The notes beneath the pieces are model-generated. The model was not told the origin of the DNA, ran no database searches, and saw only the letters and a list, made by a program, of their open reading frames with translations. Positions 10,267 to 55,041 of a stretch of 64,000 bases of DNA are shown here, in pieces. How positions within the stretch are numbered: the first letter of the stretch is position 1; each line of letters begins with the position of its first letter. The stretch comes from Alphaproteobacteria bacterium (GTDB lineage Bacteria; Pseudomonadota; Alphaproteobacteria; RF32; CAG-239): NCBI GenBank assembly GCA_045611785.1, contig JAZKXV010000026.1:20382-84381 (forward strand), written 5' to 3'. The position numbers were made by a program, and so were the translations under genes.

Positions 10267-10272
10267 TTTTAT

Positions 10273-10301: not shown

Positions 10302-10336
10302 TGTACAATTTCAAATTATTTTATAACCAATAATCC

Positions 10337-11467: not shown

Positions 11468-11490
11468 CTAACAAATCAAACATTGAGAAG

Positions 11491-11766: not shown

Positions 11767-11915
11767 TTTTTTACCCTTTGAATGCAAATTCAAAGGGTTT
11801 TATTTTTGATAAACTAAAAAGTTGTATATGACAATATATGTATTGACGCCCCTAAAAAAATTTTATACGATTACGCCCATATTGTAAAATCTAACAAAAA
11901 AAGAAAGGAAAACAT

Positions 11916-12467
11916 ATGTTACATCCGTGGCACGGTGTTAGTCGTGGTGAAAATCCACCAGAAATTATAACTGCTATAATTGAAGTTCCAAAAGGATCAC
12001 AAACAAAATATGAACTTGATAAATTAAGCGGTTTATTAAAAGTTGATCGTATCTTATATAGTGCCGTACATTATCCGGCAAACTACGGTTTCATCCCTCA
12101 AAGTTATTGCGAAGATAACGACCCTTTAGATATATTGGTACTGTGCCAAGAGTCTGTATTGCCTCTATCTATAATGAGAGTTCGTCCAATTGGGGTTATG
12201 AAAATGGTTGATCAAGGTGAAGCCGATGATAAGATTATTGCCGTTCACGTTGATGACCCTGAATTTGCACATTATCAATCAATTGATGAATTACCCCCGC
12301 ATAGCTTAAAAATCTTAAGACGCTTCTTTGAAGACTATAAACTTCTCGAAAACAAAGAAGTAAAAATTGAAAAATTTTTAGGAGTAAACGAAGCTAAACA
12401 AATTATCCAAAGCGCTTTTAATTTATATGATGAACATAAAGAAAATCTGGCAGGATATGAAAAATAA
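11916..12467 (+). CDS. ppa: Soluble inorganic pyrophosphatase, family I
   Basis: [38 protein letters not shown]. Confidence 0.96.
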
Positions 12468-12499
12468 ACCCCATAAAAAATCGCCTTAACGGCGATTTT

Positions 12500-14047
12500 T
12501 TAATTAGACTTACCTTTTCTTTCCGCCAAGACCTTAAAAACTCCAAAATTTTCAGGCACTACATTGTCTTTATATTTATTCCATTCAGATTTCAATATAC
12601 TATGATTCACCAGCGGATTTCTTTGCTCTATAGCCAACTTTCTTCCGTTGTCAATCATCCTCTTAACAAAAGGTTCTATACCTTTAGAACATTTATTTAC
12701 AAGGTCGATTACATCAGGAACATCATTAACATTTGAATACCAAAATCTACCTATATTTTTCATCAATTCTGCCTGTTTATATCCAACGCTTGTAAGCTTT
12801 TCTTTTAATGTTGTCCAAAATGCAGAATTATGTTCTCCACTACCAACAAGAACCTTATCAAAAATCATCAACGCTTCATTTTTCTTCAATGGCACAACAG
12901 CCGCTTTTGTCCCTTTTTTTGCTTTATATTTTTCATGAGATGCCAAAAAGACAGGATAACCTGCTGAATAACGTGTCTCATATTCCGGTTCAAATTGACC
13001 ATCTGTAACAGAATATCTGTGAATAGCTGTAAAACCGAGTTGATCATTAAATTCTCTTTGAGAGTTATTTGTAACACAAATTACTTGCTTAAGTGCTTTA
13101 TTTATTTCTTTTTCAGAATATTTTAATTTTGCCATTGTTTCTTTAAGCACATCAGAAATTATAGTTAAATCATTTGCTCCGTAGCAATGAGCCTGAATTA
13201 TAATATTTCTGAAATTTTGATACAACTGTTCTTTTGAATATCTTTCAAATTTACCATCTTTTACAGATGCCATAAAGGGCATAAATTTTTGTAAAATTTC
13301 CCTTTTATAATCTTTTTTCATTCTATCCTTAGTTGTTGTATCTTTTTTCACCAAGCTCATTATTCCTGCCATATAAGCACTTGGCCTGTAACAAGAGCAC
13401 AATTGCATATTATCCAGCTGCTCTTGAGATAACCCTAACACATTTGCAAATGCATTAATATTACCATTGGCTTCACGAGGCTCTCTGGTTTGGTCACCAC
13501 CTAAACATAAAAGTGTTTTTTTACTCGGATCAAGCGCACCCGTTTCAGTCCAATGATTTTCAGCTGTTTTAGATTTCATACCTATACGATAATAAGAGAA
13601 AAACTCGGGATTAATACTTAATATTCCATCCTTAAATTCATATTGCAATCGACCATCTTTAAACAAAGCAATTTCATAATCTTTTTCACGTTTATTGTAT
13701 AAATTGCCATTATCATAGTAACTTTCGTAAGTTTTATCAGGCCTTTCAATTGATGAAACAGCCCCATTATCATGGTATCTAACTATAGTTTTATCAGGCT
13801 TAATTTCTCTGTCAATTATATCAGATTGATATTTATAGACACGATAAGTGCCATCTGATGTTTCTTCTATTGTTTTATATCCTTGAGCACTATAAACCTC
13901 ATAACTGCCATCAGGATTTATATATTTACGTGTTGATACCATACCCTTTATATACATGGTTTCAAGCATTCTTCCATCTTCTAAAACCTGAATTTCCGGC
14001 CTACGTAAATCACTCTCTAAAGCATTTGATTCATCAGATTGATTCAT
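12500..14047 (-). CDS. Hypothetical protein: MORN/YwqK-like repeats plus possible alpha/beta-hydrolase-like domain
   Basis: N-terminal YHDNG/YYDNG/FKDG repeats; LLCLGGD and IIIQAHCYGA resembling a nucleophile elbow. Confidence 0.5.
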   Translation of the reverse strand: MNQSDESNALESDLRRPEIQVLEDGRMLETMYIKGMVSTRKYINPDGSYEVYSAQGYKTIEETSDGTYRVYKYQSDIIDREIKPDKTIVRYHDNGAVSSIERPDKTYESYYDNGNLYNKREKDYEIALFKDGRLQYEFKDGILSINPEFFSYYRIGMKSKTAENHWTETGALDPSKKTLLCLGGDQTREPREANGNINAFANVLGLSQEQLDNMQLCSCYRPSAYMAGIMSLVKKDTTTKDRMKKDYKREILQKFMPFMASVKDGKFERYSKEQLYQNFRNIIIQAHCYGANDLTIISDVLKETMAKLKYSEKEINKALKQVICVTNNSQREFNDQLGFTAIHRYSVTDGQFEPEYETRYSAGYPVFLASHEKYKAKKGTKAAVVPLKKNEALMIFDKVLVGSGEHNSAFWTTLKEKLTSVGYKQAELMKNIGRFWYSNVNDVPDVIDLVNKCSKGIEPFVKRMIDNGRKLAIEQRNPLVNHSILKSEWNKYKDNVVPENFGVFKVLAERKGKSN

Positions 14048-14184
14048 TTTATTCTCCTATTCACTCATATTACCAAACAAAGACGTTTTTGTCAATATAC
14101 AAGATGTTTAGTTATCTTAACCATATCTTTAGATATATAATGTATTATGGATAACTGGTTTAATATTATTTACAGGAGACACGA

Positions 14185-15513
14185 ATGGTTAAATTTGTAG
14201 TTTTCGGGCTAGGAATGGTCGGTAAATCATTTTTAAATATTGTTAAAAAAGAGAACATATTTGATGCTGATAATTGGTATGTAATTGATAAAAATCCTAG
14301 TGCTGAAAATGACTTTCTAAATATTGGTGGTAAAAAATCAAATTTTATAATAGCAGATATTGAATACAATAATTACGATGCTATTTTTTCTATATTAGAA
14401 AAAGGAGATTATCTGTTAGATTTAAGTTCTTCTCAAACTAACACTGATTTTTTAAGTATCTGCATGGATAAAGAGATACATTATTTATCTACAAGCTCAC
14501 TACCCTATGAAGAAAAAGCCGGTTCTGTTCCTGATTATCATGATTTTTGCGTTTACAAAAAATTAAAAGAAAAAAATAATCCTAACGGTCCTACTTCGGT
14601 TATTGAATTTGGCATGAATCCGGGAATGGTATCATGCTTTACAAAACAATGCATTAAAGAAATAGTAAAGCATGACAACCATGATTTTGTTGTAAAAAAT
14701 CGCGAAATTTTACAAAATTTAATTAATAATAACGAGTATGCAAAAGTTGCACAAATGCTCGAAATAGAAATTATACATGTATCAGATATTGATACTACCA
14801 AAACAAATTTTGCACCACAAAACAAATGCGTATATTCTACATGGAATATCGAAGCTTTTGCTGATGAAACACTCGGTAAAAGCGAGTTTTCATTAGGCAC
14901 CGGTATAAACCATAAAATTTTCGGAAATGAAGTTAATATTTTCAACGAACAAGACGGATATTTGCTTTTAAATACAATTCCGGTTGAATGTATCGATCAA
15001 TCATATTCTCCTTGGGGAAGTTTTAACGGCTGCATTGTACCACATGAAGAAATATATTCCATTGCAGACTTCTTAAGCGTGTATAAAGATAACAAGTTAG
15101 AATATAAGCCATCTGTATACTTTGTTTACAAGCCATCTGATATAGCCTTAAATTCGCTTATTGAAGCCCACAAATGCAATTTTGAAAACTTCACCGAACA
15201 TATGATACAACCTGAAGATATTGCTGAAGGAGGAGAAGCTGTTGGTATTGTTATTGATGGTAAAAACTTCACTACACGCTATTTCGGCAACAAACTCGTA
15301 GCACCTATTGAAAATGAAACCCCAACAATTTTACAAGTTTCTGCATCTGCATATAGCGCATTTAGATATATGTTAGATAATCCAAACAAAGGATTTTTAT
15401 TTCCTGAAGAAGTCGATGATGAAAAAGTTATCGAATATGCTAAAGTATGCTTAAATGAATACGATAGTTTTGAATGTCCTAAACTTGAAAGGCCATTATT
15501 CAATCGAAAATAA
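14185..15513 (+). CDS. hss: Homospermidine synthase family protein
   Basis: Rossmann GLGMVG, IEFGMNPGMVSCF, IHVSDIDT, STWNIEAF..E, VPHEE. Confidence 0.8.
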   Translation: MVKFVVFGLGMVGKSFLNIVKKENIFDADNWYVIDKNPSAENDFLNIGGKKSNFIIADIEYNNYDAIFSILEKGDYLLDLSSSQTNTDFLSICMDKEIHYLSTSSLPYEEKAGSVPDYHDFCVYKKLKEKNNPNGPTSVIEFGMNPGMVSCFTKQCIKEIVKHDNHDFVVKNREILQNLINNNEYAKVAQMLEIEIIHVSDIDTTKTNFAPQNKCVYSTWNIEAFADETLGKSEFSLGTGINHKIFGNEVNIFNEQDGYLLLNTIPVECIDQSYSPWGSFNGCIVPHEEIYSIADFLSVYKDNKLEYKPSVYFVYKPSDIALNSLIEAHKCNFENFTEHMIQPEDIAEGGEAVGIVIDGKNFTTRYFGNKLVAPIENETPTILQVSASAYSAFRYMLDNPNKGFLFPEEVDDEKVIEYAKVCLNEYDSFECPKLERPLFNRK

Positions 15514-29631: not shown

Positions 29632-30609
29632 CTACAATATATTTATTTTTCCATCAACAGTAATTTCTGCCTCACCACCTAATGGAATGGTTGCAATAGG
29701 TGTTGTATGACCCATATCAATATTGGCAATTATAGGCATATCTTTAAGCTCAGGTTTGTTCTTTAATATAAACTCTAATTTTTCACGAGTAACCTTTGAG
29801 GCTTTTTGGAAACGTCCGATTACCAAACCTTTAACATTTTTAAAATCATCCTGATTGATTAAGGCCTGCAAATTTCGTTCAAATGTCAACAAATCTGACA
29901 TTTCATCATCTTCTAAAAACAATATTGTATCTTCATTAAAGCTAGGACGATATTGTGTTCCCATATGCAAAATAAAAGTGCATAAATTTCCACCAATTAT
30001 TGTACCTTTTGCTGCTCCTTTTTGAAGATGCCACCAACCTTCATTTTCAATAAAAGTTCTATTTTCTTGGTCCAAAAACCACATCTCATCACTCCATTCT
30101 TTTGATGCTTTAAGCTCTTGAGAGTGTCCTTCAAAAAGAGTTTTAACCATATTTTCTAATGTATACTCAATTCCTTTTAACATACCTAAGGAACTATAAT
30201 GAGGTCCATAATATGTAACCAAACCTGTTTTAGCATAAATAGCCGTATGCAAAGCGGTTATATCTGAAAAGCCCATAAATATTTTAGGATTATTTCTGAT
30301 TAAGTCATAATCTAAGTGTTTAATAAGTTGGTTAGAATTAAAACCACCAATTACTGTCAAAACAGCTTTTACAGATTTATCGGCAAAAGCACTATGAATG
30401 TCATCAACACGTTTTTTTATATCTGTAGAAATTGTTAAATCGCAATTTTCATCTATTGTATTAGGCGCAAAGACAACTTTTAAGCCTAAGTTTTTAAGTC
30501 TTTCCTCAGCAATTTGTCTGCAGTCTGCACCAATAAGTTTCAAACTTCTTGATGGCGCAATAATCATCACTTTATCGCCTTTTTTTAGCCTTTGAGGTAT
30601 AATCGCCAT
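29632..30609 (-). CDS. S66 peptidase (LD-carboxypeptidase/MccF-like)
   Basis: IAPS, GGFNSN, GFSDITAL, GGNL, FLED, DMGHTTP. Confidence 0.9.
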   Translation of the reverse strand: MAIIPQRLKKGDKVMIIAPSRSLKLIGADCRQIAEERLKNLGLKVVFAPNTIDENCDLTISTDIKKRVDDIHSAFADKSVKAVLTVIGGFNSNQLIKHLDYDLIRNNPKIFMGFSDITALHTAIYAKTGLVTYYGPHYSSLGMLKGIEYTLENMVKTLFEGHSQELKASKEWSDEMWFLDQENRTFIENEGWWHLQKGAAKGTIIGGNLCTFILHMGTQYRPSFNEDTILFLEDDEMSDLLTFERNLQALINQDDFKNVKGLVIGRFQKASKVTREKLEFILKNKPELKDMPIIANIDMGHTTPIATIPLGGEAEITVDGKINIL

Positions 30610-30628: not shown

Positions 30629-32287
30629 TTATTGTTCTTGATATATGTGTAAAAACGTTACAGGTTTTATATCTGTTGCTTTTAAAACTCTTTTTCTGAT
30701 ATGCCCTTTAATAAAATCTGTCACTTGAGAATTTATACATTTACATTCTTTAAGTTTTGTATTTATTAAAGGAATAACGATTTCTTTAATTTCTTCAACC
30801 AAATTGTTCCAATCTGCTTCTTCCAAAATATCAATAGAAGAAACCTGCAAATCTTTTAACTCTAAACTCTGTGAAACAACAGCGCTGATAAACATTGAAC
30901 AATTATATGCTATACGGCGTCTGTTTTGAACCAGCTCAGAATTAAGTGAAACACTGCGACCTCTGTCCACTCCGATAACATCTGAAATTGTTTCTTCAAT
31001 TTTAGCAATTTTGCCATCAGAAAGTAAAAATATATCGCCATTTTTACCGGAACAAACATCTTGAACACCGCATGATAAAGCAAATCGTTTATGTTCTCTG
31101 ATAAAACGTTTATCACCATGAACCGGAAAAACAATTTTTGGTTTCAAAATTTCATACATTTGTCTTAGTTCTTCTTTTGAAGCATGACCTGAAGTATGTA
31201 CCAAGTCTGTTTCTTCAGTAATAATTTTAACACCTTTAATTGCCATTTGCTCTTGCATTCTTTCAATTTTATCTTCATTTCCCGGAATAATTTTTGAAGA
31301 AAAAATTATAGTATCATCTTTACTTAAACTAACATACTTGCTTTCACCCTTAGCAATTTGGCTTAAAGCACTGCGATAATTCGCTTGTGAACCAGTACAA
31401 ATATACATTGCTTTATCTGATGTAATATCTTTTGCTTCATCTGCACTGTAAGTATTCGGCATATCCTTAAAATATCCGCATTCTTTTGCTATCTTCATAT
31501 TTGTAAGCAATGTTTTGCCCATTAAAATCGGTGTTCTTTGTGCAAGGTCTGCCGCAATAATCAAACTCTCCAAACGCATTAAGTTAGAGGCAAAACAAGT
31601 TACTATCAAACCTCCCTTAATTTGCGGAATAAGGGTACATAAACTTTGACGCACATCATATTCAGAACATTGATTTTCATCAATTGATACGTTTGTTGAA
31701 TCGCAAACAAATAAATCTATACCCTCTTTGGCAATTTGCTTTAACTTATCTATCGGACTTTTTAGCATTTCGGTTTTTGCATCATCAAAACGCCAATCTG
31801 TAGCATGAAAAATATTTTGATATTCTGTTTTAATAAACAATCCGCAAGTTTGAGGCACCGAATGCACTAATGATACAAACTCAACCTCAAATTCTTTGAG
31901 CTTAACGTTCATAGTTTCATTAACGCATATAAGTTCGACCTCATTTTCCATTTTATATTCTTTAAGTCTTTCTGTAATTAAGGCTAAAGCAAAATCCGTA
32001 CCATAAACCGGACACCTTAAACATGGCCATATATGAGCAATTGCTCCCATATGATCTTCATGAGCATGAGTAATAAAAATGCCCTCAATATCTTGAGCAT
32101 AATCTTTCAAAAATTCAGGAGAAGCATAGCACATATCCATTCCCGGATAGTCATCATTTAAAAAGCCATAACCTACATCAACTATAATCCATTTTCCGTT
32201 TGATGAATATGCAAACATATTCATGCCAATATCATCAGCACCACCAATCGGAATAAAATAAACTCCTGTTTTTTTAAAGCTTTCCAT
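30629..32287 (-). CDS. rnj: Ribonuclease J
   Basis: GGADDIGMN, THAHEDHMG, HSVP, FASNLMR, HTSGHA, PVHG. Confidence 0.93.
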   Translation of the reverse strand: MESFKKTGVYFIPIGGADDIGMNMFAYSSNGKWIIVDVGYGFLNDDYPGMDMCYASPEFLKDYAQDIEGIFITHAHEDHMGAIAHIWPCLRCPVYGTDFALALITERLKEYKMENEVELICVNETMNVKLKEFEVEFVSLVHSVPQTCGLFIKTEYQNIFHATDWRFDDAKTEMLKSPIDKLKQIAKEGIDLFVCDSTNVSIDENQCSEYDVRQSLCTLIPQIKGGLIVTCFASNLMRLESLIIAADLAQRTPILMGKTLLTNMKIAKECGYFKDMPNTYSADEAKDITSDKAMYICTGSQANYRSALSQIAKGESKYVSLSKDDTIIFSSKIIPGNEDKIERMQEQMAIKGVKIITEETDLVHTSGHASKEELRQMYEILKPKIVFPVHGDKRFIREHKRFALSCGVQDVCSGKNGDIFLLSDGKIAKIEETISDVIGVDRGRSVSLNSELVQNRRRIAYNCSMFISAVVSQSLELKDLQVSSIDILEEADWNNLVEEIKEIVIPLINTKLKECKCINSQVTDFIKGHIRKRVLKATDIKPVTFLHIYQEQ

Positions 32288-32290
32288 CCT

Positions 32291-33013
32291 TTAACTTTCT
32301 TTTACAAATAAATCGCCGACTAAAATTTTTTTTATTTCTTCATTTGTTTTTAAAACCATGGCACCATTATCATCAATAGTTAAAAAAATTCCATCTATTG
32401 TTTGTTTTTCTTGTTTTATTAAAACAGCATTACCCAGATTATACGCATTGTCAAGCCATGTTTGCTTAATCTGACTAAATCCGCTTGTTTGATAGTGTTC
32501 TAAAAGTTTATCTAAAACATTAGTTAGATGCTCTAACACGCTCAACCTGTCGATATAAATTCCTAAATTGTGTAAACTTGTCGCGTTGTATTTTATATCA
32601 ACAAGTTCAGGATTTGAAACAATATTTATACCAACACCCATAACCCAAAAATTATCATCTGCTTTTTCAAACAATATTCCGGAAATTTTTTCACCATTAA
32701 CCAAAACATCATTTGGCCACTTAACTTCTATCTTAGCATCTTTAATAAAATGGCTGATTGTTTTTAACACCGCAACAGCACTTAATATAACCATGTGGCA
32801 CAACTCATTTGCTTTAATTTCAAAAGCAAATGATGCAAACAAATTTCCCTTTTGGCTCACCCAAGAATTACCTCTTCTGCCTCGTCCGCCGGTTTGTTCT
32901 AGAGCCGATACAATACATGGTTGCTTTAATTTAGCAACTAATGATTTGGCATCATCATTAGTGCTTACAACATTTAAATTATCTTGCCATATCCAATTTT
33001 TTATTTGTTTCAT
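32291..33013 (-). CDS. birA: Biotin--protein ligase (group I, no HTH)
   Basis: STNDDA, QTGGRGRRGNSWVS, KWPNDVLVNGEKISGIL, GVGIN. Confidence 0.95.
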   Translation of the reverse strand: MKQIKNWIWQDNLNVVSTNDDAKSLVAKLKQPCIVSALEQTGGRGRRGNSWVSQKGNLFASFAFEIKANELCHMVILSAVAVLKTISHFIKDAKIEVKWPNDVLVNGEKISGILFEKADDNFWVMGVGINIVSNPELVDIKYNATSLHNLGIYIDRLSVLEHLTNVLDKLLEHYQTSGFSQIKQTWLDNAYNLGNAVLIKQEKQTIDGIFLTIDDNGAMVLKTNEEIKKILVGDLFVKES

Positions 33014-34422
33014 TATTTTAACACCAAATTTAATATTACCGGAGCATCATATAACAAAAACTCAGGCTTAAACATTAACATTACCATTAAAATCATATTT
33101 ATGAGCAAATAAACATATACACCATAATCAGGCCTATTAAAATCTACCTCACGATTATTAAAATACATTGACCGGATAATTTGCAAATATGCAGCCATTA
33201 CAATTATCAAGCAAACTAAAGAAATAAACATAATGATGTAAGCCTGATTTTCCACAAAAGTTTCTAGAGCTGATAATTGACCGATAAATCCGGAAAAAGG
33301 AGAAATTCCCATCAAAGATATCATAAAAAACAGCATCGCAGCCGAAACAAAAGGTCTTACTTTTGCAATTCCGTTAATCATGTTTAAGTTTGCTAAATAA
33401 ACACCATTACTCTTAAAGCTATAAAATGAAGTATAAACACCAAAAAGTGATAAAATATAAACTTGTAAATAGATAAATCCTCCTAATAATTTGGAAGCTG
33501 TAAACGGAGAAATAAGCAACAATAACATACCTAAATTATAAATTCCGCTATATGCAAATATTTTTCTTAAATTTCTACTTGCGTTGGCTCCTATAGCTCC
33601 AACAATTAAAGAAAACACTCCAAAAAACAAATACACTAAGTTTAATTCTGAAGCTAAGGGAATAAACACAATTGTATTTAATTTCATAAATGCAGCAAAT
33701 AAGGCAAATACAGGAACTAAATTAAAATATGCTGCAACCGGCAATATAGATGGTGAAACAATATCCGCAAAACAAAAATGCAAAGGAGCAACTCCCAATA
33801 AGAACAACATAAAGAACAATATTGCACCGACAATAAACATTGCAATATTGATATTTTCACTACCTAAAAATTCGGCAGTTGCTTTATAGTGCCAGTTTTC
33901 TATTGATAAACACACAAGTGAGAGAATTAACAACACACTAAAAATCAGAGCCATTACTAAATATCTTTTGCTTACATTATGAAGTTCTTCACTTTGTTGG
34001 CTAAATTTCAGCAAACTGTAATTTACAAATGATAACAAAATTAAACCACCGCATAAAACTCCAAGGTTTATTGTTTTTATGATTAAACTAAAGCTAAACA
34101 TCGCTAATAATGATAATATGCAAAAATACAATGGATCTACATCTTCTGAAACAAACCATTTAACAGATAACGAAAGCCAAGCAAACATAACCAATGCACT
34201 CAATATATAAAACAGTACGGTATAAGAATTTGCTTCAAAAACATCGGTAAAAACAGCTTTATTATAAAACAACACTGAAAAAAGTGCACTTATAATCACT
34301 ACAATTTTTGTAATTTTAAAATAACTTCTGACTGATGTTGTAAAAAATTTATACAACATCAAAGCCAAAACACCTAACAGTAAAGAAACTTCTGAAAATA
34401 AATATAAAACATTTTCTATCAT
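33013..34422 (-). CDS. nuoN: Divergent NADH-quinone oxidoreductase subunit N-like antiporter-fold protein
   Basis: ~14 TM, APLHF, RKIFAYSGI, SLMGISPFSGF; position before birA-rnj as in alphaproteobacterial nuo operons. Confidence 0.8.
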   Translation of the reverse strand: MIENVLYLFSEVSLLLGVLALMLYKFFTTSVRSYFKITKIVVIISALFSVLFYNKAVFTDVFEANSYTVLFYILSALVMFAWLSLSVKWFVSEDVDPLYFCILSLLAMFSFSLIIKTINLGVLCGGLILLSFVNYSLLKFSQQSEELHNVSKRYLVMALIFSVLLILSLVCLSIENWHYKATAEFLGSENINIAMFIVGAILFFMLFLLGVAPLHFCFADIVSPSILPVAAYFNLVPVFALFAAFMKLNTIVFIPLASELNLVYLFFGVFSLIVGAIGANASRNLRKIFAYSGIYNLGMLLLLISPFTASKLLGGFIYLQVYILSLFGVYTSFYSFKSNGVYLANLNMINGIAKVRPFVSAAMLFFMISLMGISPFSGFIGQLSALETFVENQAYIIMFISLVCLIIVMAAYLQIIRSMYFNNREVDFNRPDYGVYVYLLINMILMVMLMFKPEFLLYDAPVILNLVLK

Positions 34423-34434
34423 ATCATTTTCCTA

Positions 34435-35850
34435 TCAATATGCAAACCATAGAGGTTTGAACAAGGATAAAAACAAAATACACATTACAACAAGACATAT
34501 CACAAACTCAGTTGTATCAATGTCATAAAGTTTATCTTTGCTGTTTATCGGACAACTGTCATCTTTTAATGAATATAAAGTTTGCAACAAGGTAACAGAT
34601 GCCAATACTAGCGTAATTATTATGGCTGTTCCCATGTACAAGCTCACATTAAAAATTTCTGATATTATAATAAAATTATTCCAAAAAAGCGCCGATACCG
34701 GCAAACCAATTATAGCTAAAACCAACATAGAATATGAAAGAGATGCTTTAGGTAATAAGCACAAAATTCCTGTAACGCTGCCATATAGCTTATCACTCTC
34801 TGTTTCAATATGCGTAACAAGCATTGTTAATGCTGAAACTACCAAAATAAATGCAAATAAAGAATATGAAATATTATCAACTAAAATATCTGTAGGTAAA
34901 AACACTCCTATTAAATATAGCAAATAATATACCAAAGTATATGCAAAAAACTTTTCTTTTGCCGAACTGTTAGAATATCCGCTGAAAGCAATAAACAACA
35001 TTGTAATTATACAGAAAACTTCAAAAATTGGAGCTAAAGATGAAATTTCATCAGGAATATTAGCTGGCCAAAACCGCATAAATCCATATAAACCAACGAC
35101 CGGTATCAAATTAACTTCTATATATGAGAGTGAATTTTTCATTGAATTTATAATAGAGGTTATCCAATAATGAAACGGCCATACAGGTATACGAGATATA
35201 AAAGCTAAAAATATAGCACTCCAAATCCAAATACCATACCGGCTGTCTAATTCCACAGTTGAAATCTGATTAATTTCCACACTATTACCGACCAATGCAT
35301 ATAAAGTAACCACAGCACTTAAAAATAAAAAAGCACCTATAAAATTATATAAAAAGAATCGGGAAATAATTTTATATTTCTTTCCATCGCTAATGATTCC
35401 TGTTTGCATATATAAAGGAATTATCATCAACACAAAGAACGTATAAAATGAAAAAATATCTACTGATGAAAAATAAGCATTAATTGAAAACAAAAAACAC
35501 ATAGCAAAAAACAACACAGGCTTCTGAGATGTTCTCTGATGCTTTACCTCAAAAACACCTATAAGCATTGCAAGATGTACAGCCAAAATTAACATCAGCG
35601 ATGTAACATCAACTCCGAACACCAAACTTACTCTGGGCAAAATAGGCCAAACAAACGAACTGACTGCTTGTATTTCATTACTATGAACATCAATATCTGC
35701 AAACAACCTTAAAATAAGGAAAATATTGCTCAAAATAGTAAAAATTGCAACATTTACTGAGTTTGTATAATTCCCATTATGAGAAGATATAACAAACAAT
35801 CCGCCGATTAATGGTAAACATATAATAACCAACAACAAAATTTCAGCCAT
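34435..35850 (-). CDS. nuoM: Divergent NuoM-like protein
   Basis: GVDVTS, IPVWPFHYW, LYGFMRF, IGLP. Confidence 0.8.
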   Translation of the reverse strand: MAEILLLVIICLPLIGGLFVISSHNGNYTNSVNVAIFTILSNIFLILRLFADIDVHSNEIQAVSSFVWPILPRVSLVFGVDVTSLMLILAVHLAMLIGVFEVKHQRTSQKPVLFFAMCFLFSINAYFSSVDIFSFYTFFVLMIIPLYMQTGIISDGKKYKIISRFFLYNFIGAFLFLSAVVTLYALVGNSVEINQISTVELDSRYGIWIWSAIFLAFISRIPVWPFHYWITSIINSMKNSLSYIEVNLIPVVGLYGFMRFWPANIPDEISSLAPIFEVFCIITMLFIAFSGYSNSSAKEKFFAYTLVYYLLYLIGVFLPTDILVDNISYSLFAFILVVSALTMLVTHIETESDKLYGSVTGILCLLPKASLSYSMLVLAIIGLPVSALFWNNFIIISEIFNVSLYMGTAIIITLVLASVTLLQTLYSLKDDSCPINSKDKLYDIDTTEFVICLVVMCILFLSLFKPLWFAY

Positions 35851-37520
35851 TACTTATTTTCCTTTATAAAACACCATATCAACACTGCTACAGCCAAAAT
35901 AAAATTAAAGAAATAATATGTTTTCCAGTGTCTTACAGATTTTCTAAAAACACGAATAGTAAAAGCATTTATTGATGACAACATTGCCGTTAGCGTTTTT
36001 TCAATAAATATGAAATCGAACAAAACCGTAAGCAACCTGCCCATAATTTTCACCGGCCTCACTATTATTATATCATAAACATGTGCAGAAAAATCTATCT
36101 TTTGCAATTTTGTATTCAAATAAGAATTTTGATATATAAATCTAAGCGGATATAATTTAATAAGTATTAAATATATAGCACAAAATACTAAAGAACTTAT
36201 CCAAAATGTTTTACACTTGCCTATCTCAAAAGATGCTATTGTTATACAAAGTAGCAAAACGACAAACGGCGAATAACTTAATACGGGCATCTTGGTCTGA
36301 TGTCGTGTAATGACAAATAATTGTGAATAAAGATGCGATGATGCCACTACAAACAATACCGTAAAAAGATAAATCCAATATTGATCATTATTATTAATTT
36401 TTGCAATTTGCGATAAAAATGCCAAGCTTACCAAGACATATGCAAAAACATCAAAATTAAGCAATGATCTGTTTACATATTTATTAGAATCGATTAAGTG
36501 CAAATTATTTTCCCGGTTCACACTATAGTGTGCATAATATAAACACAGATTGATGCAAAAACCAAAAATAAGCATTAAAGAAAAATGTGCACCCCATATA
36601 AAGTCTGCATTTTGGACACTTTTAACCAATAATGCTATAATCAACATATTAAGATAAACAGTTTTTTCCTTTAAGTTATTAATTACGATTGTACCAATAG
36701 CACCCCATACCATAGTTAAAACAACCGCAATGTTTAAGCACATATCAAATGATGGTGAAACCACTAATAACGGATAAAACTTCATAAATAAGATAAGAGC
36801 CACCATAGGAGTCGATAAATACGGAATTAAAATAAGCCTATGAAATTTAGTGTTTTTCAAATCTAATAAATAACTTTGAAAAAGGAAAAAACCAAATTTT
36901 ATGAACAAGCTTATTATTATCACAAACATTATAAAATCACGATGTCGTCCGGTTTCATAATAATGCACCATATTTGTTACTTCCAGTGTTTCTAACTTAC
37001 CTTTCAGCATTGCCATAACCAGAAACAACCCCATATCGGCAATCAAATTATATATACTATAACGCCGGCTTGCATAAATATCTTTAATAAGCAACTGGCT
37101 TAAAATATCTGTTACAAACACAAATGTGATAATCTGAAGCAAATTATTTCCGGTTATTAACATAATAAGGCTTAACAAGTTTAACACCAAAATAGCGGAA
37201 AAACTTTTTTTGTTTTGTTCGTATCTAAAAAACAAGTTATTCACAAGCGCCAATATCGTAATAACAAAAAACGGAAATATAAGACGATAGTTATTAACAG
37301 ATGAAACTATATCAATTTTTATATCGCCACTACGAGAACTATCCCATACCAATGTAGTAATTGCTTCTGCTCCGATTCGCATATCTAAGCAAAAAAAGTA
37401 AAAAACAGCCACGGTTGCAGCGGTAATTAAGGGAGCCGCAATTCTATCTAATCTATGCTTAAACCTTATAAGAGATAAAATTCCTATAAAAAGCAAATAA
37501 GAAACCGTATTAACCAGCAT
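35850..37520 (-). CDS. nuoL: Divergent NuoL-like protein
   Basis: NNLLQI, NLIADMG, YLSTPMVAL, C-terminal YD..IVRP..FDFIFIE amphipathic segment. Confidence 0.75.
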   Translation of the reverse strand: MLVNTVSYLLFIGILSLIRFKHRLDRIAAPLITAATVAVFYFFCLDMRIGAEAITTLVWDSSRSGDIKIDIVSSVNNYRLIFPFFVITILALVNNLFFRYEQNKKSFSAILVLNLLSLIMLITGNNLLQIITFVFVTDILSQLLIKDIYASRRYSIYNLIADMGLFLVMAMLKGKLETLEVTNMVHYYETGRHRDFIMFVIIISLFIKFGFFLFQSYLLDLKNTKFHRLILIPYLSTPMVALILFMKFYPLLVVSPSFDMCLNIAVVLTMVWGAIGTIVINNLKEKTVYLNMLIIALLVKSVQNADFIWGAHFSLMLIFGFCINLCLYYAHYSVNRENNLHLIDSNKYVNRSLLNFDVFAYVLVSLAFLSQIAKINNNDQYWIYLFTVLFVVASSHLYSQLFVITRHQTKMPVLSYSPFVVLLLCITIASFEIGKCKTFWISSLVFCAIYLILIKLYPLRFIYQNSYLNTKLQKIDFSAHVYDIIIVRPVKIMGRLLTVLFDFIFIEKTLTAMLSSINAFTIRVFRKSVRHWKTYYFFNFILAVAVLIWCFIKENK

Positions 37521-37580
37521 ATTTATCCACCAAAAAATTTAAGGGCTCGATAGCCCTTAAAACAACGTATAAACTAAATT

Positions 37581-37898
37581 TTACATAAATGCTTTAACAT
37601 CTTTAACGATTCGCACGGGAACTTTATATTCTCTAACAACATCATCGTCATTAATTTCCACCACCCAAACTTCTGATACAGATTTCAATGGGTTACGTGC
37701 ACCTTCTGCGATATCATCAAAATATACAGCATTTTCTTTGCAACGATATAACAAAGCATATTCTGTTCCATCATAAACAAACAAAGGATTCTCAGGGCCG
37801 CCATTGCGTTGTTGAATAATCATCATTATTTGACCTTTGTCATTTTGTAAAATATCATACCTGCTCTTTTTACCGGTTGATTGAGTATTTTCAGCCAT
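37581..37898 (-). CDS. Hypothetical protein (105 aa)
   Basis: SD gagg, host-like composition. Confidence 0.7.
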   Translation of the reverse strand: MAENTQSTGKKSRYDILQNDKGQIMMIIQQRNGGPENPLFVYDGTEYALLYRCKENAVYFDDIAEGARNPLKSVSEVWVVEINDDDVVREYKVPVRIVKDVKAFM

Positions 37899-38053: not shown

Positions 38054-38129
38054 GGGCTCGTAGCTCAGTCGGTAGAGCATTTGACTTTTAATCAAAGGGT
38101 CATGGGTTCGAATCCCGTCGGGCTCACCA
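38054..38129 (+). tRNA. tRNA-Lys (TTT)
   Basis: Cloverleaf, anticodon arm tttga-cTTTtaa-tcaaa, GGTTCGAATCC, CCA; promoter and terminator flank it. Confidence 0.97.
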
Positions 38130-38436: not shown

Positions 38437-38997
38437 ATGAAAGTACTTTATATTGATTCCTGCATACGAGAACACTCACGAACAAAAACATTAGCTGATT
38501 ATTTAGTTAACAAAATCGGTGGTGATGTTAAAGAGATAGTATTGAGTAAAGAAAAAATATCACCGGTTGACAATGCTTTTTTGCAAAAAAGAGATAAGTT
38601 AATATCGGAGAGCAATTTTAATGATGAAATGTTTTCATACGCCAAAGATTTTGCAGAAGCTGATGTTATTGTTGTTGCTGCGCCTTACTGGGATTTATCT
38701 TTTCCATCAATATTAAAAGTATTTTTTGAGCAAATTAATGTATTAAAATTGGTGTTTGATTATTCTGATAAAGGTGAAATAGTTTCATTATGCAAAGCTA
38801 AAAAGCTTTATTATGTAACAACCAAAGGTGGATATTCTACAGATGATTTTGGGTTTAAGTATATTGAAGCTTTGAGTAAAACATTTTATGCCATAAAAGA
38901 TGTTGTTTTAATTAATGCTGAAGGTTTAGATGTTTATGGTAATAATGTTGAAGATATTTTAAAAAAAGCAAAAGAAAACATAGATAATTTGCTATAA
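38437..38997 (+). CDS. FMN-dependent NADH-azoreductase / flavodoxin-like fold
   Basis: SCIRE.SRT..LA, ADVIVVAAPYWDLSFPSILKVFFE, VTTKGG. Confidence 0.88.
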   Translation: MKVLYIDSCIREHSRTKTLADYLVNKIGGDVKEIVLSKEKISPVDNAFLQKRDKLISESNFNDEMFSYAKDFAEADVIVVAAPYWDLSFPSILKVFFEQINVLKLVFDYSDKGEIVSLCKAKKLYYVTTKGGYSTDDFGFKYIEALSKTFYAIKDVVLINAEGLDVYGNNVEDILKKAKENIDNLL

Positions 38998-47627: not shown

Positions 47628-48881
47628 ATGAGAAAAACTATTGAGAAGGTCCTCATGGACAATGGCTATGGTTGCAATGCTACAATCAGAGAGACAGTAG
47701 CAATGGAAGTTTTAAATCAGTTCGGTTCTCTTCCTCAGCCTCACAAACTAAATTTGAAGGAATGGTCTAAAGTTATAAGCTATGCAATCGAAGTAGGCGG
47801 TTGTCAGCACGGTACAGAATTTTCGTATCAAAATGCTCAAGGAACGCTCTCTGTTGCAAAGGTTTTTGATTTGTATCAAATCCCTAAGGGCTTAGTTAAT
47901 CCTTTCCTTGTTTGCTTTTCCGGTTACATGCCGGCAGCAATCTACACTATGGAAGCTTTAAGAGCTTATCACACAAAGTTCAACGAAAAGCTTCCGGTAT
48001 TTGCCACAGGCAAAGGAGGTAATAAAGGGCTTTTTGCTAACGTATTCAACAGAGAAGCCGGTGTTATGATTAAAACAGAAGCAGAAGCATACATGCGCAT
48101 TATGTCGCAGATTGAACCTGCAGATGAAATTTGTAAATACCAACGACAGGTTGAAGATACTGATACACAAGGTAATTTTGCCGAGATGTATCAGTTAGCA
48201 AAAGCACAGAACCTTAGTGAAGTAACTTTCATTATGTGTACAGGTCAGCCTTGGTATACCAAGCGTCTCTTGGCTGAAGGAATGCTAGAGTTCGGCAAAC
48301 CGGAATACTCTGACATTAAGGTCAATTTGGTAGTTCTCGATTGCCCTTTGACACTAGACAGCTTGACACCTGAAGGTCATTTAAGCGAGTTGATGCTCGG
48401 CTACATTGCCGCATCTTTGGGTCCATTATTAAAAGACACATGTCCGCTTGATGAACCAGACTTCACAAAAGAAAGATACTTACTTCCAGGCGTAGCTGAG
48501 GCCGATTGGAGTATTTTTGAAAAGCTTATCACATTCTACTCAAACATGGGTTGGAATAACTATCAGGAGTTGCTTTATGGCGTTGACCATGAGACAGCCG
48601 TGTACAATGTCATAATGGCAGATTTACGTGCACGCGCATCGTTTACACCTGAGATGTATGAAGAGTCTATCAAACACGACATCGACAAGTATTTACGCTT
48701 CCCAAGAGCAAATCGGCAGAAGTTATTTTGCAGAAGGGTCTACCTAAAGATGAGATGTATTGAAAACCATCGTAGCCACACAAAGTACGGTGACGTTTCG
48801 TACCTGATATACAAATCCTTTCCGGAGGAGTATTGTGGTTGGGAGACAAGTGGTTGGAATGACACAGAAAATCATTTTTAG
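47628..48881 (+). CDS. Divergent DUF218-like protein
   Basis: FATGKGG, TEAEAY, EDTDTQGNF, CTGQPWYTKR match the DUF218 motif order. Confidence 0.5.
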   Translation: MRKTIEKVLMDNGYGCNATIRETVAMEVLNQFGSLPQPHKLNLKEWSKVISYAIEVGGCQHGTEFSYQNAQGTLSVAKVFDLYQIPKGLVNPFLVCFSGYMPAAIYTMEALRAYHTKFNEKLPVFATGKGGNKGLFANVFNREAGVMIKTEAEAYMRIMSQIEPADEICKYQRQVEDTDTQGNFAEMYQLAKAQNLSEVTFIMCTGQPWYTKRLLAEGMLEFGKPEYSDIKVNLVVLDCPLTLDSLTPEGHLSELMLGYIAASLGPLLKDTCPLDEPDFTKERYLLPGVAEADWSIFEKLITFYSNMGWNNYQELLYGVDHETAVYNVIMADLRARASFTPEMYEESIKHDIDKYLRFPRANRQKLFCRRVYLKMRCIENHRSHTKYGDVSYLIYKSFPEEYCGWETSGWNDTENHF

Positions 48882-49236: not shown

Positions 49237-50526
49237 TTAAATGCTATTTGATTTTCCCCTCATTGTCAAGCGATTTTGTTCTAAAAGAGCTACTTGGACT
49301 TTTTCAGGTTCTGTATAAGATGTTCCTCTGGCATCTTGAACTTTTTTCATCATATTTTGTATGCTTATTAATAACAATGCATGATCTTTTACAGCTCTTG
49401 CTTTTCTTTTTGAAGTTTTAAGTATGCCACCACGCAAAGATACTTCATGTATAGTTCCGTCAGGAAGAGATACCGAATATCCATCTACTCCACGTTCTTC
49501 AAGCTTACTCACACAATGAGATGCCAACATATCTTTTTCGTTAACTGTAAAATAGTATCGACCATTGATGGTATGACTTTCATTTGTCATATTTGCCCCG
49601 ATACTTTCTTGCAATTTACGAGATCCTTCGTTTAATTGGTTGCACTTAACTACAACATGTTTTCCTTTATCTCCTTCAGAGAGTAAGAAATTATATAATG
49701 CACTAAGTGTTACGGCATAAATTTCACTACCACGTCCCTTACCCTGACAAGATGTATCAATAAACAACCCCGGATCTCCAACGCAAACTTGAGTAATAGG
49801 TTGTCCCTTATCATCATAATCCACAACAAATTCTGTTGCTTTAGTTGAAATTCGAGATATTCCTACAACTTGTTGCGTCTCTTTGTCAGTAATTTTAAAA
49901 TATAAAGTACCACTATCCTCATCTTCATTAGCAGAAACACCGGTTTGTACATACCTTTGCACCGGATCAAACCATAACTGCTCTTCAGGCACCTGCCCGA
50001 TTTTTGACATATCAGGTTTTAAAAATTGAATATTATAATGCCAATCATCTATAGGTATCGGAGGTTTCAAATTTTCATTTTGAATTTGTGTTAAGTCTAT
50101 ATCTTTAAGTTTTTGCAAAGCATCTTTATCATTTTCAAAGTCAACACCTAATTTAGTTTTGCATTCTTGTATAATTTGCTGTCTGTATTTTTGTGCTCTA
50201 ATTTTGCTTGCTTCAAGAAAATGCTCAAGTATTTGTTCTTGAGTGGCATCTTTTAACTGTGTATCGATTTTTTGAGAACCTGAAGCATTTGCCTTTATTT
50301 GCTCTTGTTTTGCAAGAAAAAGCTCCATATCTTTTTTAGCAATATTTCTGATATAAACTTCTAGTTTCTTTTCATTTAATAAAAGCTCTACAGTATCTTT
50401 CCAAGTCATACGCCTACTAATCTGAGCGAAGCATTTTACATCATCCTCAGCTGTAATCTTTTCCATTATAAAACGACTTGTTTCAATTTTCATATAAATC
50501 CCTTCAATAAATCCATATTTGTACAA
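49237..50526 (-). CDS. GNAT-family acetyltransferase with coiled-coil insertion
   Basis: ETSRFIMEKI start, GLFIDTSCQGKGRGSE motif A, NEGSRKLQESIG. Confidence 0.7.
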   Translation of the reverse strand: MYKYGFIEGIYMKIETSRFIMEKITAEDDVKCFAQISRRMTWKDTVELLLNEKKLEVYIRNIAKKDMELFLAKQEQIKANASGSQKIDTQLKDATQEQILEHFLEASKIRAQKYRQQIIQECKTKLGVDFENDKDALQKLKDIDLTQIQNENLKPPIPIDDWHYNIQFLKPDMSKIGQVPEEQLWFDPVQRYVQTGVSANEDEDSGTLYFKITDKETQQVVGISRISTKATEFVVDYDDKGQPITQVCVGDPGLFIDTSCQGKGRGSEIYAVTLSALYNFLLSEGDKGKHVVVKCNQLNEGSRKLQESIGANMTNESHTINGRYYFTVNEKDMLASHCVSKLEERGVDGYSVSLPDGTIHEVSLRGGILKTSKRKARAVKDHALLLISIQNMMKKVQDARGTSYTEPEKVQVALLEQNRLTMRGKSNSI

Positions 50527-52417: not shown

Positions 52418-52518
52418 AATTAATGATCCCGAAAATGTAAAAGTAATTACCCTAATCTTTATGTGTTGACACAAACGACAAAAACGTTTATACTGACAGA
52501 ATAAGGGTGGTAAAGCGA

Positions 52519-55041
52519 ATGCAAATAACAACAGATAAAAAAAAGTGGAATGAATTAACCTATACTGAAAAGCACAGTCGTTGCAATCGGATCAGAGCCA
52601 TATGCGCAATGGGAGATATTGAGGCTCTAAAAAAACTCATTCCGACCACTGAAGAACTACTTGCTTACGTTGATATGAACAACGGAGGCTCATTTTTACA
52701 TACATTAATGTACTCTGGCGAATCTAAAACCAATACTCCAGATCAAGTAGAATTTCTAAAACAAGTATTTAAAGAATATGGGCTTGATGAAAATGAGGAA
52801 GCGAGAAGAAAACTTTTATTAAGAAAGAATGCCAGAGGAAAGTATGCAGCAGATTTTACCTATGCTTTGAATTTTACCAGTCATAGCATTAAAGCTACTT
52901 TTGATGAACTTGTCGGCAAAACTGTGCCAACGCAACTTGAACCTGATACAAGAACTGATTTTGAAAAAAATAAAGTTACCTTGTATACCATATTAAAAGC
53001 CGAAATAATCAAAGTCAGACCTCCTGCTCAAAAATCTGATATTCATAAAATTGGGCATGACTATACCCCTCACGAACAGCACAGTACAGAAAAATCAGGA
53101 ACACCTACAACGGGTGGAATGTATATACCTGATAAAGATGGCAACCCTGCATTATACATACTTGGTTCAATAAGAGAAACCTACCCGGTAATAAAATTAC
53201 GAAACATTGATGAATATGGCGACGATGTTGCAATCATTGAAAATTTAGATCCCAATAGCCCGAAAGGCTTAAGAGAACAAGCGCTTGCAAAAATAGATTT
53301 TCCTGAAGACTTTATACATCATTTTAAAGCATTAGAAGAGTTTGAACAAACTTACCAAAACATGCGCGACGACCCTGACCAATTTGCATATATGAGAAAC
53401 TTTGTTCAACAACGAGGATCTTTAATTTTTGAAGACCAAAGAGATCCTGATGTTAATGGAAACACTAAATCAGGATACGATTACGGTGGATATGCCTGCG
53501 AGAAAATTGTTAACGGAGAAAAGTTTCCTTGCATTGTTGTTAGAAGCGATTATGCAAGCACCGCAAAATCAGATTGGAAAAGTAAAACATCAACATTATT
53601 ACATGAATTATATCATAGGGTTGATTTAAGTAAAGACATCAAACTATCTCAATTGCCTATAACACAATATGTCTTGATGTTAAGTGAGCAAAACCCTAAC
53701 ACCCCTATAAAGGACGCTCATAAAATTGTTAATGAGGCATATCCACCAACTGAATATGAAAAAGAAGTAATTGCTCAATTAATGAGTATTACAGATAAAG
53801 ACACGCTTGGTTCAAGCCCTTTATTGAGAAATTTTTATGCACTTGGAAAATATTTTGCAACTGCCAAAGCTGATAAATGCCCTGCTCTAATGCATAGAAT
53901 TGCTCATGCGCACGAAATATTACCTGAAGAAACTTTAATACAGCTTCACTCAGAATATTTAGATTTTAAAAAAGCAAAAGAAAGACAATATACTGATGAA
54001 GAAAATATAAGCAAATTGTTTCCTGAAGATGAACACGAATGCAACAGACAAATAAAGGCTTCACGAAATAGATTTACCATTGAATTTCAACAAAAAAACC
54101 AAGAAAAAGATGCACAAAGAAAACTTCAGGAAACGAGGTTGCTTAATTGTATTATAAGCATTGCTAGATATGCACAAATTTTACAAGAAAACCCTAAATT
54201 GGGGGAAATCATTATGCCTCCAATTGCATATAAACTAACGGCATCAAGCCCGAGACCTATTGAAGAAGCAATTGCTCCATATTACAAGTCTAAAATTCAT
54301 CCTCAAATGATTGAACATCGCATAAAAACAATTTCAGTATATGGCAAACTGCAAAAAGGTGAAGAAATAAACTCAATATACGCAACAGAATTGATAAAAA
54401 CCGCATATATGTGTGAACAATTATTTAAACAAAAGTTTCCAAAATCAACTCTACCCGAGCAATTACCATCTTTTAGTTGCATGACAAAGAAAACTTTTGA
54501 GCATTCTCCAGAACAATATGCAAAATCAATGCAACTATTCACTGAAGCTATTAAAAATAATGCTAGCGAATTTCAACTCAGGGCATCATTATATTGCAAC
54601 AAGCCTATCAATCATCTTACAAACGAAGATTATTTAATGTTCAATATAGAAGATGCTAACAATAGATGTAGATATCAAAATAAATCAAGCATGTTTAGAT
54701 ACCCGGAGCAAATAAAAGACGATATCCAACAATGTTTAAACATTGAATTTGAAAAAGCTGGTTACAAAAAAGAAGATATACCAGACTTTTTTGCCATATC
54801 TGAAGAAAATGGTAAAAACCCGCCATATTATAAAAATATTGCAGCTGTTGTCCCTTATATTAAACAGGGATACACCCCTGAATTATTAAAAGAAATATTC
54901 ACAATTGCAGCAACATCACCTAAAAATGTTGAACAAACAATTCAAAAATACACAAATAATGTACCTATGCAAGACAGATTTAAAGAAGGTACAACCCCCT
55001 ATCGGCGTATTCCGCAATTATTAGCCAGACAAGAAATCTGA
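52519..55041 (+). CDS. Large hypothetical protein with HExxH zinc-metallopeptidase-like motif
   Basis: TLLHELYHRVD followed by YPPTEYEKE; N-terminal ankyrin-like GGSFLHTL; own TTGACA-17-TATACT promoter. Confidence 0.55.
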   Translation: MQITTDKKKWNELTYTEKHSRCNRIRAICAMGDIEALKKLIPTTEELLAYVDMNNGGSFLHTLMYSGESKTNTPDQVEFLKQVFKEYGLDENEEARRKLLLRKNARGKYAADFTYALNFTSHSIKATFDELVGKTVPTQLEPDTRTDFEKNKVTLYTILKAEIIKVRPPAQKSDIHKIGHDYTPHEQHSTEKSGTPTTGGMYIPDKDGNPALYILGSIRETYPVIKLRNIDEYGDDVAIIENLDPNSPKGLREQALAKIDFPEDFIHHFKALEEFEQTYQNMRDDPDQFAYMRNFVQQRGSLIFEDQRDPDVNGNTKSGYDYGGYACEKIVNGEKFPCIVVRSDYASTAKSDWKSKTSTLLHELYHRVDLSKDIKLSQLPITQYVLMLSEQNPNTPIKDAHKIVNEAYPPTEYEKEVIAQLMSITDKDTLGSSPLLRNFYALGKYFATAKADKCPALMHRIAHAHEILPEETLIQLHSEYLDFKKAKERQYTDEENISKLFPEDEHECNRQIKASRNRFTIEFQQKNQEKDAQRKLQETRLLNCIISIARYAQILQENPKLGEIIMPPIAYKLTASSPRPIEEAIAPYYKSKIHPQMIEHRIKTISVYGKLQKGEEINSIYATELIKTAYMCEQLFKQKFPKSTLPEQLPSFSCMTKKTFEHSPEQYAKSMQLFTEAIKNNASEFQLRASLYCNKPINHLTNEDYLMFNIEDANNRCRYQNKSSMFRYPEQIKDDIQQCLNIEFEKAGYKKEDIPDFFAISEENGKNPPYYKNIAAVVPYIKQGYTPELLKEIFTIAATSPKNVEQTIQKYTNNVPMQDRFKEGTTPYRRIPQLLARQEI

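Follow-up and report, generated by a model that had tools for sequence, protein, structure and literature searches.

In the 64-kb stretch of DNA analysed here (hereafter, the window), taken from an RF32 alphaproteobacterial genome (GenBank assembly GCA_045611785.1, contig JAZKXV010000026.1, positions 20,382 to 84,381), five tightly packed genes on the minus strand encode three proteins derived from the respiratory complex I subunits NuoL, NuoM, and NuoN, followed by the biotin-protein ligase BirA and RNase J (Table 1). We refer to the first three genes and their products as L, M, and N, and to the three together as the trio. The L/M and N/birA overlaps are one base each (TAATG), and the M/N and birA/rnj gaps are 12 nt and 3 nt. 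We scanned one genome per GTDB species and fetched 80 related loci; locus counts below are over 81 loci. The original prediction for this DNA had described the trio as three intact, tightly coupled reading frames, and this description held in the window; the frames are whole in all 81 loci. Upstream of L lie a short open reading frame (ORF), w105, and a hairpin, both of which are considered further below.

Table 1. Features at and around the trio, with positions counted from the first letter of the window (aa, amino acids; FMN, flavin mononucleotide).
Feature	Positions	Strand	Length	Remarks
L-like gene (NuoL-derived)	35850-37520	minus	556 aa	
M-like gene (NuoM-derived)	34435-35850	minus	471 aa	
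N-like gene (NuoN-derived)	33013-34422	minus	469 aa	
birA, biotin-protein ligase	32291-33013	minus		start overlaps N stop by 1 nt
rnj, RNase J	30629-32287	minus		3 nt after birA
w105, ORF	37581-37898	minus	105 aa	soluble, beta-rich; in place of nuoA-K
Intrinsic-terminator-like hairpin	37538-37561	minus		TTTAAGGGC-loop-GCCCTTAAA, then T-run; between w105 and L
tRNA-Lys(UUU)	38054-38129	plus		upstream limit of conserved block
Peptidase_S66 (LD-carboxypeptidase-like)	29632-30609	minus		after rnj
Flavodoxin-like FMN reductase (Flavodoxin_2/FMN_red)	38437-38997	plus		just past tRNA-Lys

Based on profile searches, M and N both belong to Pfam family PF00361 (E = 1e-16 and 61 bits for M; E = 3e-19 and 70 bits for N). 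The top NCBIfam models were NDH_I_M (TIGR01972) for M and NDH_I_N (TIGR01770) for N, although both proteins scored far below the curated cut-offs (163 bits vs. 263.8 for M, 154 bits vs. 332.6 for N). HMMER identified Paracoccus NuoN, plant mitochondrial Nad4, and Paracoccus NuoM as the best sequence relatives of M and N in PDB. L matched no model in Pfam or NCBIfam; PF00361 is present in some members of its family. AlphaFold2, using 44 family members, modelled L with a predicted local distance difference test score (pLDDT) of 82 as a protein with ~15 transmembrane (TM) helices, a 54-residue lateral helix at residues 477-530, and a final TM helix at residues 532-555. When this model was searched with Foldseek, each of the best 37 matches was a complex I chain of the NuoL/ND5/NdhF type, and the alignments ran the full length, lateral helix included (E = 2e-13, TM-score 0.66-0.70). 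The profile of the L family had a single sequence-level match in PDB, Paracoccus NuoL, which was strongest over the lateral helix and TM16, and residues D502 and E507 are invariant in the family. An hhalign comparison of the L family with E. coli (Escherichia coli) NuoL alone was collinear but non-significant (E = 0.037), so the assignment of L to the NuoL type is settled by the AlphaFold2 model and its Foldseek matches. All three proteins are full-length, and L retains both the clamp helix and the terminal anchor.

In S. meliloti (Sinorhizobium meliloti), a member of the same class, the gene order is nuoK-L-M-N, followed by a biotin ligase gene that overlaps nuoN and by the gene for RNase J, with the same coupling as in the window. 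This shared order places the window trio at the ancestral nuoLMN site, from which nuoA-K are gone. The trio is thus the surviving distal membrane arm (NuoL-NuoM-NuoN) of an ancestral alphaproteobacterial complex I, still at its original site. The original prediction had put nuoL/M/N in their canonical place before birA-rnj and had reported nuoA-K as absent upstream, and both statements agree with our results: S. meliloti has the same nuoN-birA-rnj order, and w105 and tRNA-Lys occupy the upstream region of the window. Neither the 64-kb window nor the ±10 kb around the trio in the 81 loci yielded a NuoA-K homologue; these neighbourhoods contained only three distant NuoI-like ferredoxin-type matches, located 1.1-4.4 kb past rnj.

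Specific charged residues are essential for proton translocation in complex I and Mrp. We called the corresponding residues in the trio from HMMER alignments to PDB chains, from MAFFT alignments of each family with E. coli, and from MAFFT alignments with E. coli and S. meliloti; canonical residues carry E. coli numbering, and family counts refer to 120 sequences for M and 79 for L. Every canonical residue is present in the same-class control, S. meliloti. In M, the TM5 Glu, E144, is replaced by Val in the window (Ala or Val in the family, with Glu kept in 24/120), the TM8 Lys, K265, by Val (Leu, Val, or Ile in the family), and the TM12 Glu, E407, by Asn, as in 120/120 family members. The TM7 Lys, K234, is Arg in the window and in 117/120 sequences, and K173 is Arg in the window and the family; H322 has become Tyr in both, and H348 is Phe in the window and Phe or Tyr in the family. 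In N, hydrophobic residues or Pro replace E133, K217, and K247. The TM5 Glu, E133, is Ile, at a position where Glu is never among the main family residues listed. The TM7 Lys, K217, is Leu (Met, Ser, Ala, Leu, or Phe in the family), the TM8 Lys, K247, is Val (Pro, Val, or Leu in the family), and the TM12 Lys, K395, is Gln, with a mixed family composition (27 Lys, 21 Gln, 11 Arg); K158 and K295 are both Arg, as in most of the family.

In L, Phe takes the place of the TM5 Glu, E144 (Phe, Cys, or Gly in the family). H254 and the TM11 residues H334, H338, and K342 are lost in the window and the family, and the TM12 motif GFFSKD, which contains K399 and D400, is deleted in both. D178 and K229 (D162 and K208 in window numbering) are kept, with Asp or Glu at the former and Lys at the latter in 79/79 sequences, and K305 is Lys in the window and in most of the family. 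The manual alignment behind the original prediction had already listed N E133, K217, K247, and K395 as replaced, M E144, K265, and E407 as replaced with K234 changed to Arg, and L as lacking E144 and probably K399 but keeping D178 and K229; our alignments recovered each of these calls. Two features are additions: the recurrent Lys-to-Arg pattern in the family, and L D138, an Asp conserved in 60/79 sequences, three residues past the former TM5 Glu position, which the original prediction had missed. We also looked for charged residues retained at shifted positions. In the M and N families, no conserved charged residues were seen near the lost positions, and L alone has a shifted TM5 Asp. This did not overturn the original prediction, which already had L keeping D178 and K229.

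As judged from these alignments, the protonatable residues have been lost family-wide, apart from those in the first half of L, which is the only part of the trio to keep an Asp/Lys pair. The Lys-to-Arg replacements keep the charge, but Arg has a high pKa and would not be expected to act as a proton shuttle. The trio retains the Pro/Gly/His framework of its broken helices, TM7 and TM12, including the Pro/His framework of TM7, where M H227 corresponds to E. coli H241 and N H215 to E. coli H224. New polar residues are fixed in the M core (R220, S232, N239, Y308/Y309, N326, S330, and N391/N392), with N391/N392 present in 120/120 sequences and R220 in 117/120; D443 and K300 of M are likewise among the invariant new polar residues. 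M is the most constrained subunit, with 77 positions conserved at 90% or more; N has 24 such positions and L has 19. Those of M are concentrated in the TM7-TM8 block and TM12, which formed the old translocation core and now carry new residues. Residues 340-470, the second half of L, lack conserved polar residues and the TM12 motif, and the membrane core of N has almost no conserved polar residue.

Relatives of the trio are encoded in 249 GTDB species genomes within the scan. The 80 fetched loci all come from gut, faecal, or rumen alphaproteobacterial metagenome-assembled genomes (MAGs), with names that include "Proteobacteria bacterium CAG:495," "Ca. Scatocola," "Azospirillum sp." UMGS/MGYG, and RGIG rumen MAGs. 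The rumen RGIG set is described as belonging largely to order RF32, and rumen RF32 MAGs average 1.59 Mb (PMC8199421); the relatives as a whole, an uncultured group, probably belong to this order. In the protein database, we found hundreds of M relatives down to ~40% identity and 70 L relatives. L and M are present in 81/81 loci and N in 77/81, and the full order w105-L-M-N-birA-rnj occurs in ~70/81. Contigs carrying the cluster were also found in bins assigned to Lachnospiraceae, Bacteroidaceae, and Elusimicrobiaceae (L015, L053; P0185, P0265); these are probably mis-binned. Separately, the 3.7-Mb record CP090106.1 (L096; S. meliloti Ak57 "plasmid pSymB," in PLSDB) carries nuoG-N, birA, rnj, proS, and dnaE, and it appears to be the S. 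meliloti chromosome mislabelled as pSymB.

We used the Nei-Gojobori method to estimate ratios of nonsynonymous to synonymous substitution rates (dN/dS) from 14 close, unsaturated pairs. The ratios were 0.05-0.17 for L, 0.02-0.13 for M, and 0.04-0.11 for N, with one N outlier of 0.28 at low dS; among the neighbours, they were 0.00-0.04 for w105, 0.06-0.30 for BirA, and 0.01-0.05 for RNase J. The trio is under purifying selection about as strong as that on its housekeeping neighbours. Decay by pseudogenisation would have brought dN/dS near 1, and we rejected it based on these low values (0.02-0.17 across L, M, and N, apart from the outlier) and the intact frames. The sequences have diverged unusually far from canonical forms: window L, M, and N are 24%, 23%, and 24% identical to their S. 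meliloti homologues (L aligned over only 189 aa), whereas S. meliloti and E. coli share 40%, 38%, and 35% identity for the same subunits. The flanking BirA and RNase J have 34% and 32% identity to those of S. meliloti. Such a pattern is consistent with a phase of rapid change once the original function had been lost and a later return of constraint.

Other lineages carry the locus in different states. A deep lineage with 40% G+C (locus L098; ERZ16268266 scaffold_3129, 7190-14268) has L-M-N-birA-rnj without w105. It retains the TM5 Glu of M, an Asp at the TM5 position of N, and the TM12 Lys of N, and it already has K234R, K265L, and E407N in M and K217M and K247P in N. In the main clade, to which the window belongs, both w105 and the hairpin are present, and the trio is neutralised more fully. 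In a more divergent member (L093), even the L lysine is changed to Arg. In two loci with 32% G+C (L091 and L092; SRR16945623_42687 and SRR16945622_211840), L-M-N are cleanly deleted, leaving w105-hairpin-birA-rnj. A midpoint-rooted neighbor-joining tree of RNase J places these two inside the clade on a long branch, although this nested placement is suggestive only. Taken together, the loci form a series from the full operon (S. meliloti) through a partly neutralised orphan trio (L098) and the main clade to deletion (L091). Because the nested lineage deleted the trio, the role of the trio is dispensable in at least the L091/L092 lineage, and we regard it as useful but not indispensable.

AlphaFold2 predicted w105 as a soluble, mostly beta protein (pLDDT 87), and searches of Pfam, NCBIfam, PDB, and BFVD returned no significant match. 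It is syntenic with L in 75/81 loci, and in 73/81 it lies directly upstream on the same strand. A profile search with w105 found 575 representative clusters of relatives (including P0191-P0428), and among the matches listed the w105 domain often forms the C-terminus of a longer protein. Of ten such proteins that we scanned, six combine it with a TIR domain, one with a STAND NTPase carrying TPR repeats, and one with a weakly matching Sel1 repeat; in two, the other part was unrecognisable. Elsewhere, the domain adjoins Patatin, RyR, DUF4062, and AAA genes. In a PADLOC search with the w105 domain, the only matches were to the TIR portions of fusion proteins. Such contexts are suggestive of a conflict or defence module. 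We considered whether w105 could be the remnant of a Nuo subunit and rejected this, as it is soluble and beta-rich, has no complex I chain match, and occurs as a domain in unrelated contexts.

The hairpin that follows w105 is 10 bp long and GC-cored, with a T-run, and it ends ~10 nt before the L start. Its motif, RGGGC-loop-GCCCYT, is kept in 45/73 loci and is also found in L091 (505-591), where birA follows directly. From its sequence, the hairpin looks like an intrinsic terminator or attenuator. Because the window leaves no promoter room between the hairpin and the L start, L-M-N-birA-rnj are probably transcribed by read-through.

Beyond the trio and its immediate neighbours, no respiratory genes were found among the annotated genes of the 64-kb window, which has ~32% G+C. 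The other genes, which include glgB, glgX, malQ, trpB, an Ldh/Mdh-type enzyme, and ABC exporters, are of housekeeping and fermentative types, with genes of glycogen metabolism among them. The Peptidase_S66 gene also follows rnj in 36 related loci and thereby lengthens the conserved block downstream, whereas no synteny upstream of w105 is shared between loci. The FMN reductase was considered as a partner of the trio and rejected, as it is syntenic in the window only. Elsewhere in the window, three ORFs had no match in a scan of Pfam only (47628-48881 on the plus strand, 49237-50526 on the minus strand, and 52507-55041 on the plus strand), and four had none in a scan of NCBIfam only (8688-9812, 10337-11467, and 14185-15513 on the plus strand and 12500-14047 on the minus strand); these seven range from 353 to 844 aa.

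Because of the selection signal, we propose that the trio is a relic distal arm that no longer pumps protons and has been kept for another role, as a static "pseudo-antiporter" complex; our confidence in this proposal and our doubt about it are roughly equal. The original prediction had viewed the trio as chemically rewired and retained for a new role, a view that purifying selection supports. At the ancestral site, nuoA-K were deleted, with L-M-N left in front of birA-rnj. Under our proposal, L, M, and N would still assemble into a membrane complex, clamped by the lateral helix of L. Since M, N, and the second half of L lack a protonatable chain and no E-channel or Q-module is adjacent, there would be no continuous protonatable path through the trio, and it would support neither redox- nor gradient-driven proton pumping nor pumping of the antiport type. 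Replacement of buried Lys and Glu by Arg, Asn, or hydrophobic residues would lock and stabilise the complex in the absence of its former partners. The most likely role would be a structural or docking one, in the membrane of an anaerobe that lives by fermentation. Published descriptions of related "Azospirillum/Acetobacter sp. CAG" genomes portray strict anaerobes with FeFe-hydrogenases and pyruvate:ferredoxin oxidoreductase and without terminal oxidases (PMC4967309, PMC6431628). Stated for the order-level clade as a whole, L-M-N may have been turned into a non-pumping complex with a new selected function, either structural or docking or built around a substrate site formed by the Arg, Asn, Ser, and Tyr residues of M, and here too we see the balance as close to even.

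Several observations weigh against the proposal. The polar core of M resembles a binding or transport site more than a passive scaffold, and an Asp/Asp/Lys set persists in the first half of L. The deletion of L-M-N between the w105 hairpin and birA in the nested lineage, together with the change of the L lysine to Arg in L093, fits slow loss. In addition, no client of a scaffold has been identified, and w105 is not an obligate partner.

The trio could instead be a re-purposed transporter or channel in which the remodelled polar cores of M and L bind or conduct an anion or small solute, or in which L alone does so for a cation, much as NuoL-like proteins operate outside complex I in DabB/MpsA systems. 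Conservation in M peaks in the translocation core (TM7-TM8 and TM12), where the replacements are specific and fixed rather than random, and L keeps K208 (79/79), D162, and D138. Isolated NuoL and the NuoL-like proteins MpsA/DabB have been reported to move cations. However, a continuous hydrophilic path is missing, as residues 340-470 of L are devoid of conserved polar residues and of the TM12 motif and the membrane core of N has almost none, and no DabA- or CupA-like gene lies nearby. We consider a transporter unlikely. Another possibility is that the trio does nothing: it may be a functionless relic embedded in an essential operon (promoter-w105-...-birA-rnj), expressed by read-through, selected only against misfolding toxicity, and slowly lost. 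Selection against misfolding would favour hydrophobic replacements of buried charges, and translational coupling to birA-rnj, the lack of space in the window for a promoter between hairpin and L, the clean deletion that leaves w105-hairpin-birA-rnj in the nested lineage, and the faster divergence of L, M, and N than of their neighbours from canonical forms are all consistent with such a relic. Against it, 4.5 kb with intact frames has been maintained in 249 species genomes of a lineage with reduced genomes (PMC8199421), and dN/dS is as low as that of BirA. Hydrophobic stabilisation also leaves the invariant new polar residues of M (N391/N392, R220, D443, and K300) unexplained, and deletion, which is mutationally easy as L091 demonstrates, is rare among the sampled loci. 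A functionless relic therefore seems to us quite improbable.

Two further explanations supply the trio with partners. In one, nuoA-K or a hydrogenase or formate-dehydrogenase module is encoded elsewhere in the genome, and L-M-N form a non-pumping membrane extension of that larger complex. The clamp helix of L and the overall architecture are preserved, and the lineage has NuoE/F-like HymAB and FeFe-hydrogenases (PMC4967309). Yet nuoA-K are missing at the ancestral site in 81/81 loci, genes for Nuo, for Mrp small subunits, and for hydrogenases are absent within ±10 kb, and the residues that couple energy along the arm are gone. Relocation of 11 genes with three left behind would be an unlikely history, and terminal oxidases are reportedly missing from the group (PMC6431628); we regard a larger complex as very doubtful. 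In the other explanation, w105 is a new peripheral subunit for which L-M-N serve as the membrane anchor, giving a two-module system that replaces the peripheral arm. Three points speak for this idea: w105 immediately precedes L in the same orientation in 73/81 loci, it is extremely conserved, and it is apparently co-transcribed with L through the attenuator-like hairpin. However, the deep lineage L098 has L-M-N-birA-rnj without w105, and L091 has w105-birA-rnj without L-M-N, and on these grounds we rejected w105 as an obligate partner. Outside the clade, moreover, the contexts of the domain (TIR, STAND, Patatin, and AAA) have no relation to antiporter-like proteins, and a w105-based replacement of the peripheral arm strikes us as highly improbable.

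We searched the literature on RF32/CAG-type Alphaproteobacteria with complex I, orphan NuoLMN, and nuoN-birA synteny, and it yielded lifestyle information only, with no description of the trio. In the debate on complex I, the antiporter-like subunits are viewed as proton paths, as elements of electrostatic coupling, or as mechanical support. If our proposal of a retained, non-pumping arm is true, the clade is a natural experiment in which antiporter-module architecture has been uncoupled from proton chemistry: ~250 natural variants in which the proton chemistry has been removed while the fold, clamp helix, and broken-helix framework remain under selection. Such variants would show which features are needed for stability and assembly alone. 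The clade also documents the stepwise dismantling of a respiratory complex in an anaerobic relative of the mitochondrial lineage, and it should be of interest to specialists in complex I and in genome reduction. In public annotations, these proteins are called "hypothetical protein" or "NADH-quinone oxidoreductase subunit M"; the latter label would wrongly imply respiration in reconstructions of abundant gut bacteria.

Among known systems, the closest is the distal arm of complex I (NuoL/M/N = Nqo12/13/14 = ND5/ND4/ND2), with which the trio shares descent, the L-M-N order, and the position before birA-rnj, as well as PF00361 in M and N, the NuoL fold, lateral helix, and TM16 in L, and the framework of the broken TM7. 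It differs in that the proton residues are lost or changed, the locus lacks nuoA-K, and identity to the same-class homologues is only 23-24%. As it fails both the curated NCBIfam cut-offs for the NuoL/M/N family and the catalytic-residue test, the trio is best described as a degenerate, exapted variant of complex I subunits and not as a working member.

The trio shares the antiporter-like fold with MrpA/MrpD of Mrp antiporters, and M and N have weak NCBIfam matches to MrpD models, although these reach only ~50-56 bits, compared with 154-163 bits for the Nuo models. We rejected an Mrp antiporter based on these weaker scores, the missing catalytic Lys/Glu set, and the lack of mrpB-, C-, E-, F-, or G-like genes nearby. 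Models of Hyf and other hydrogenase subunits were likewise weak secondary NCBIfam matches for the trio, and no gene for a large or small hydrogenase subunit or for a NuoH-like subunit lies within ±10 kb; from this gene context we rejected a membrane module of a group-4 [NiFe]-hydrogenase or formate hydrogenlyase (Hyf, Mbh, Ech). NuoL-like proteins also function outside complex I in DabB/DabA (DAB), MpsA/MpsB, and NdhF3/NdhD3-CupA of the cyanobacterial NDH-1MS complex. The NuoL-like proteins of these systems retain the residues for ion translocation and are paired with a defined, soluble partner (DabA/DUF2309 or CupA). The trio resembles them in the use of antiporter-like subunits apart from NADH:quinone oxidoreduction; it differs in that the residues are gone, there are three subunits rather than one, and no partner gene is nearby. 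A DAB/MpsAB system was rejected, as the three subunits are distinct and no DUF2309 is found among the Pfam annotations of the neighbours.

In anaerobic mitochondrion-related organelles, partial remnants of complex I persist after the loss of respiration. The likeness between these organelles and the clade described here is that complex I parts were retained piecemeal after respiration was lost in an anaerobic descendant or relative of Alphaproteobacteria; hydrogenosomes keep NuoE/F (mentioned in PMC4967309). However, whereas the organelles keep the soluble, NADH-oxidising module in a catalytically active form, here it is the membrane pump module that has been kept, with its catalytic residues removed.

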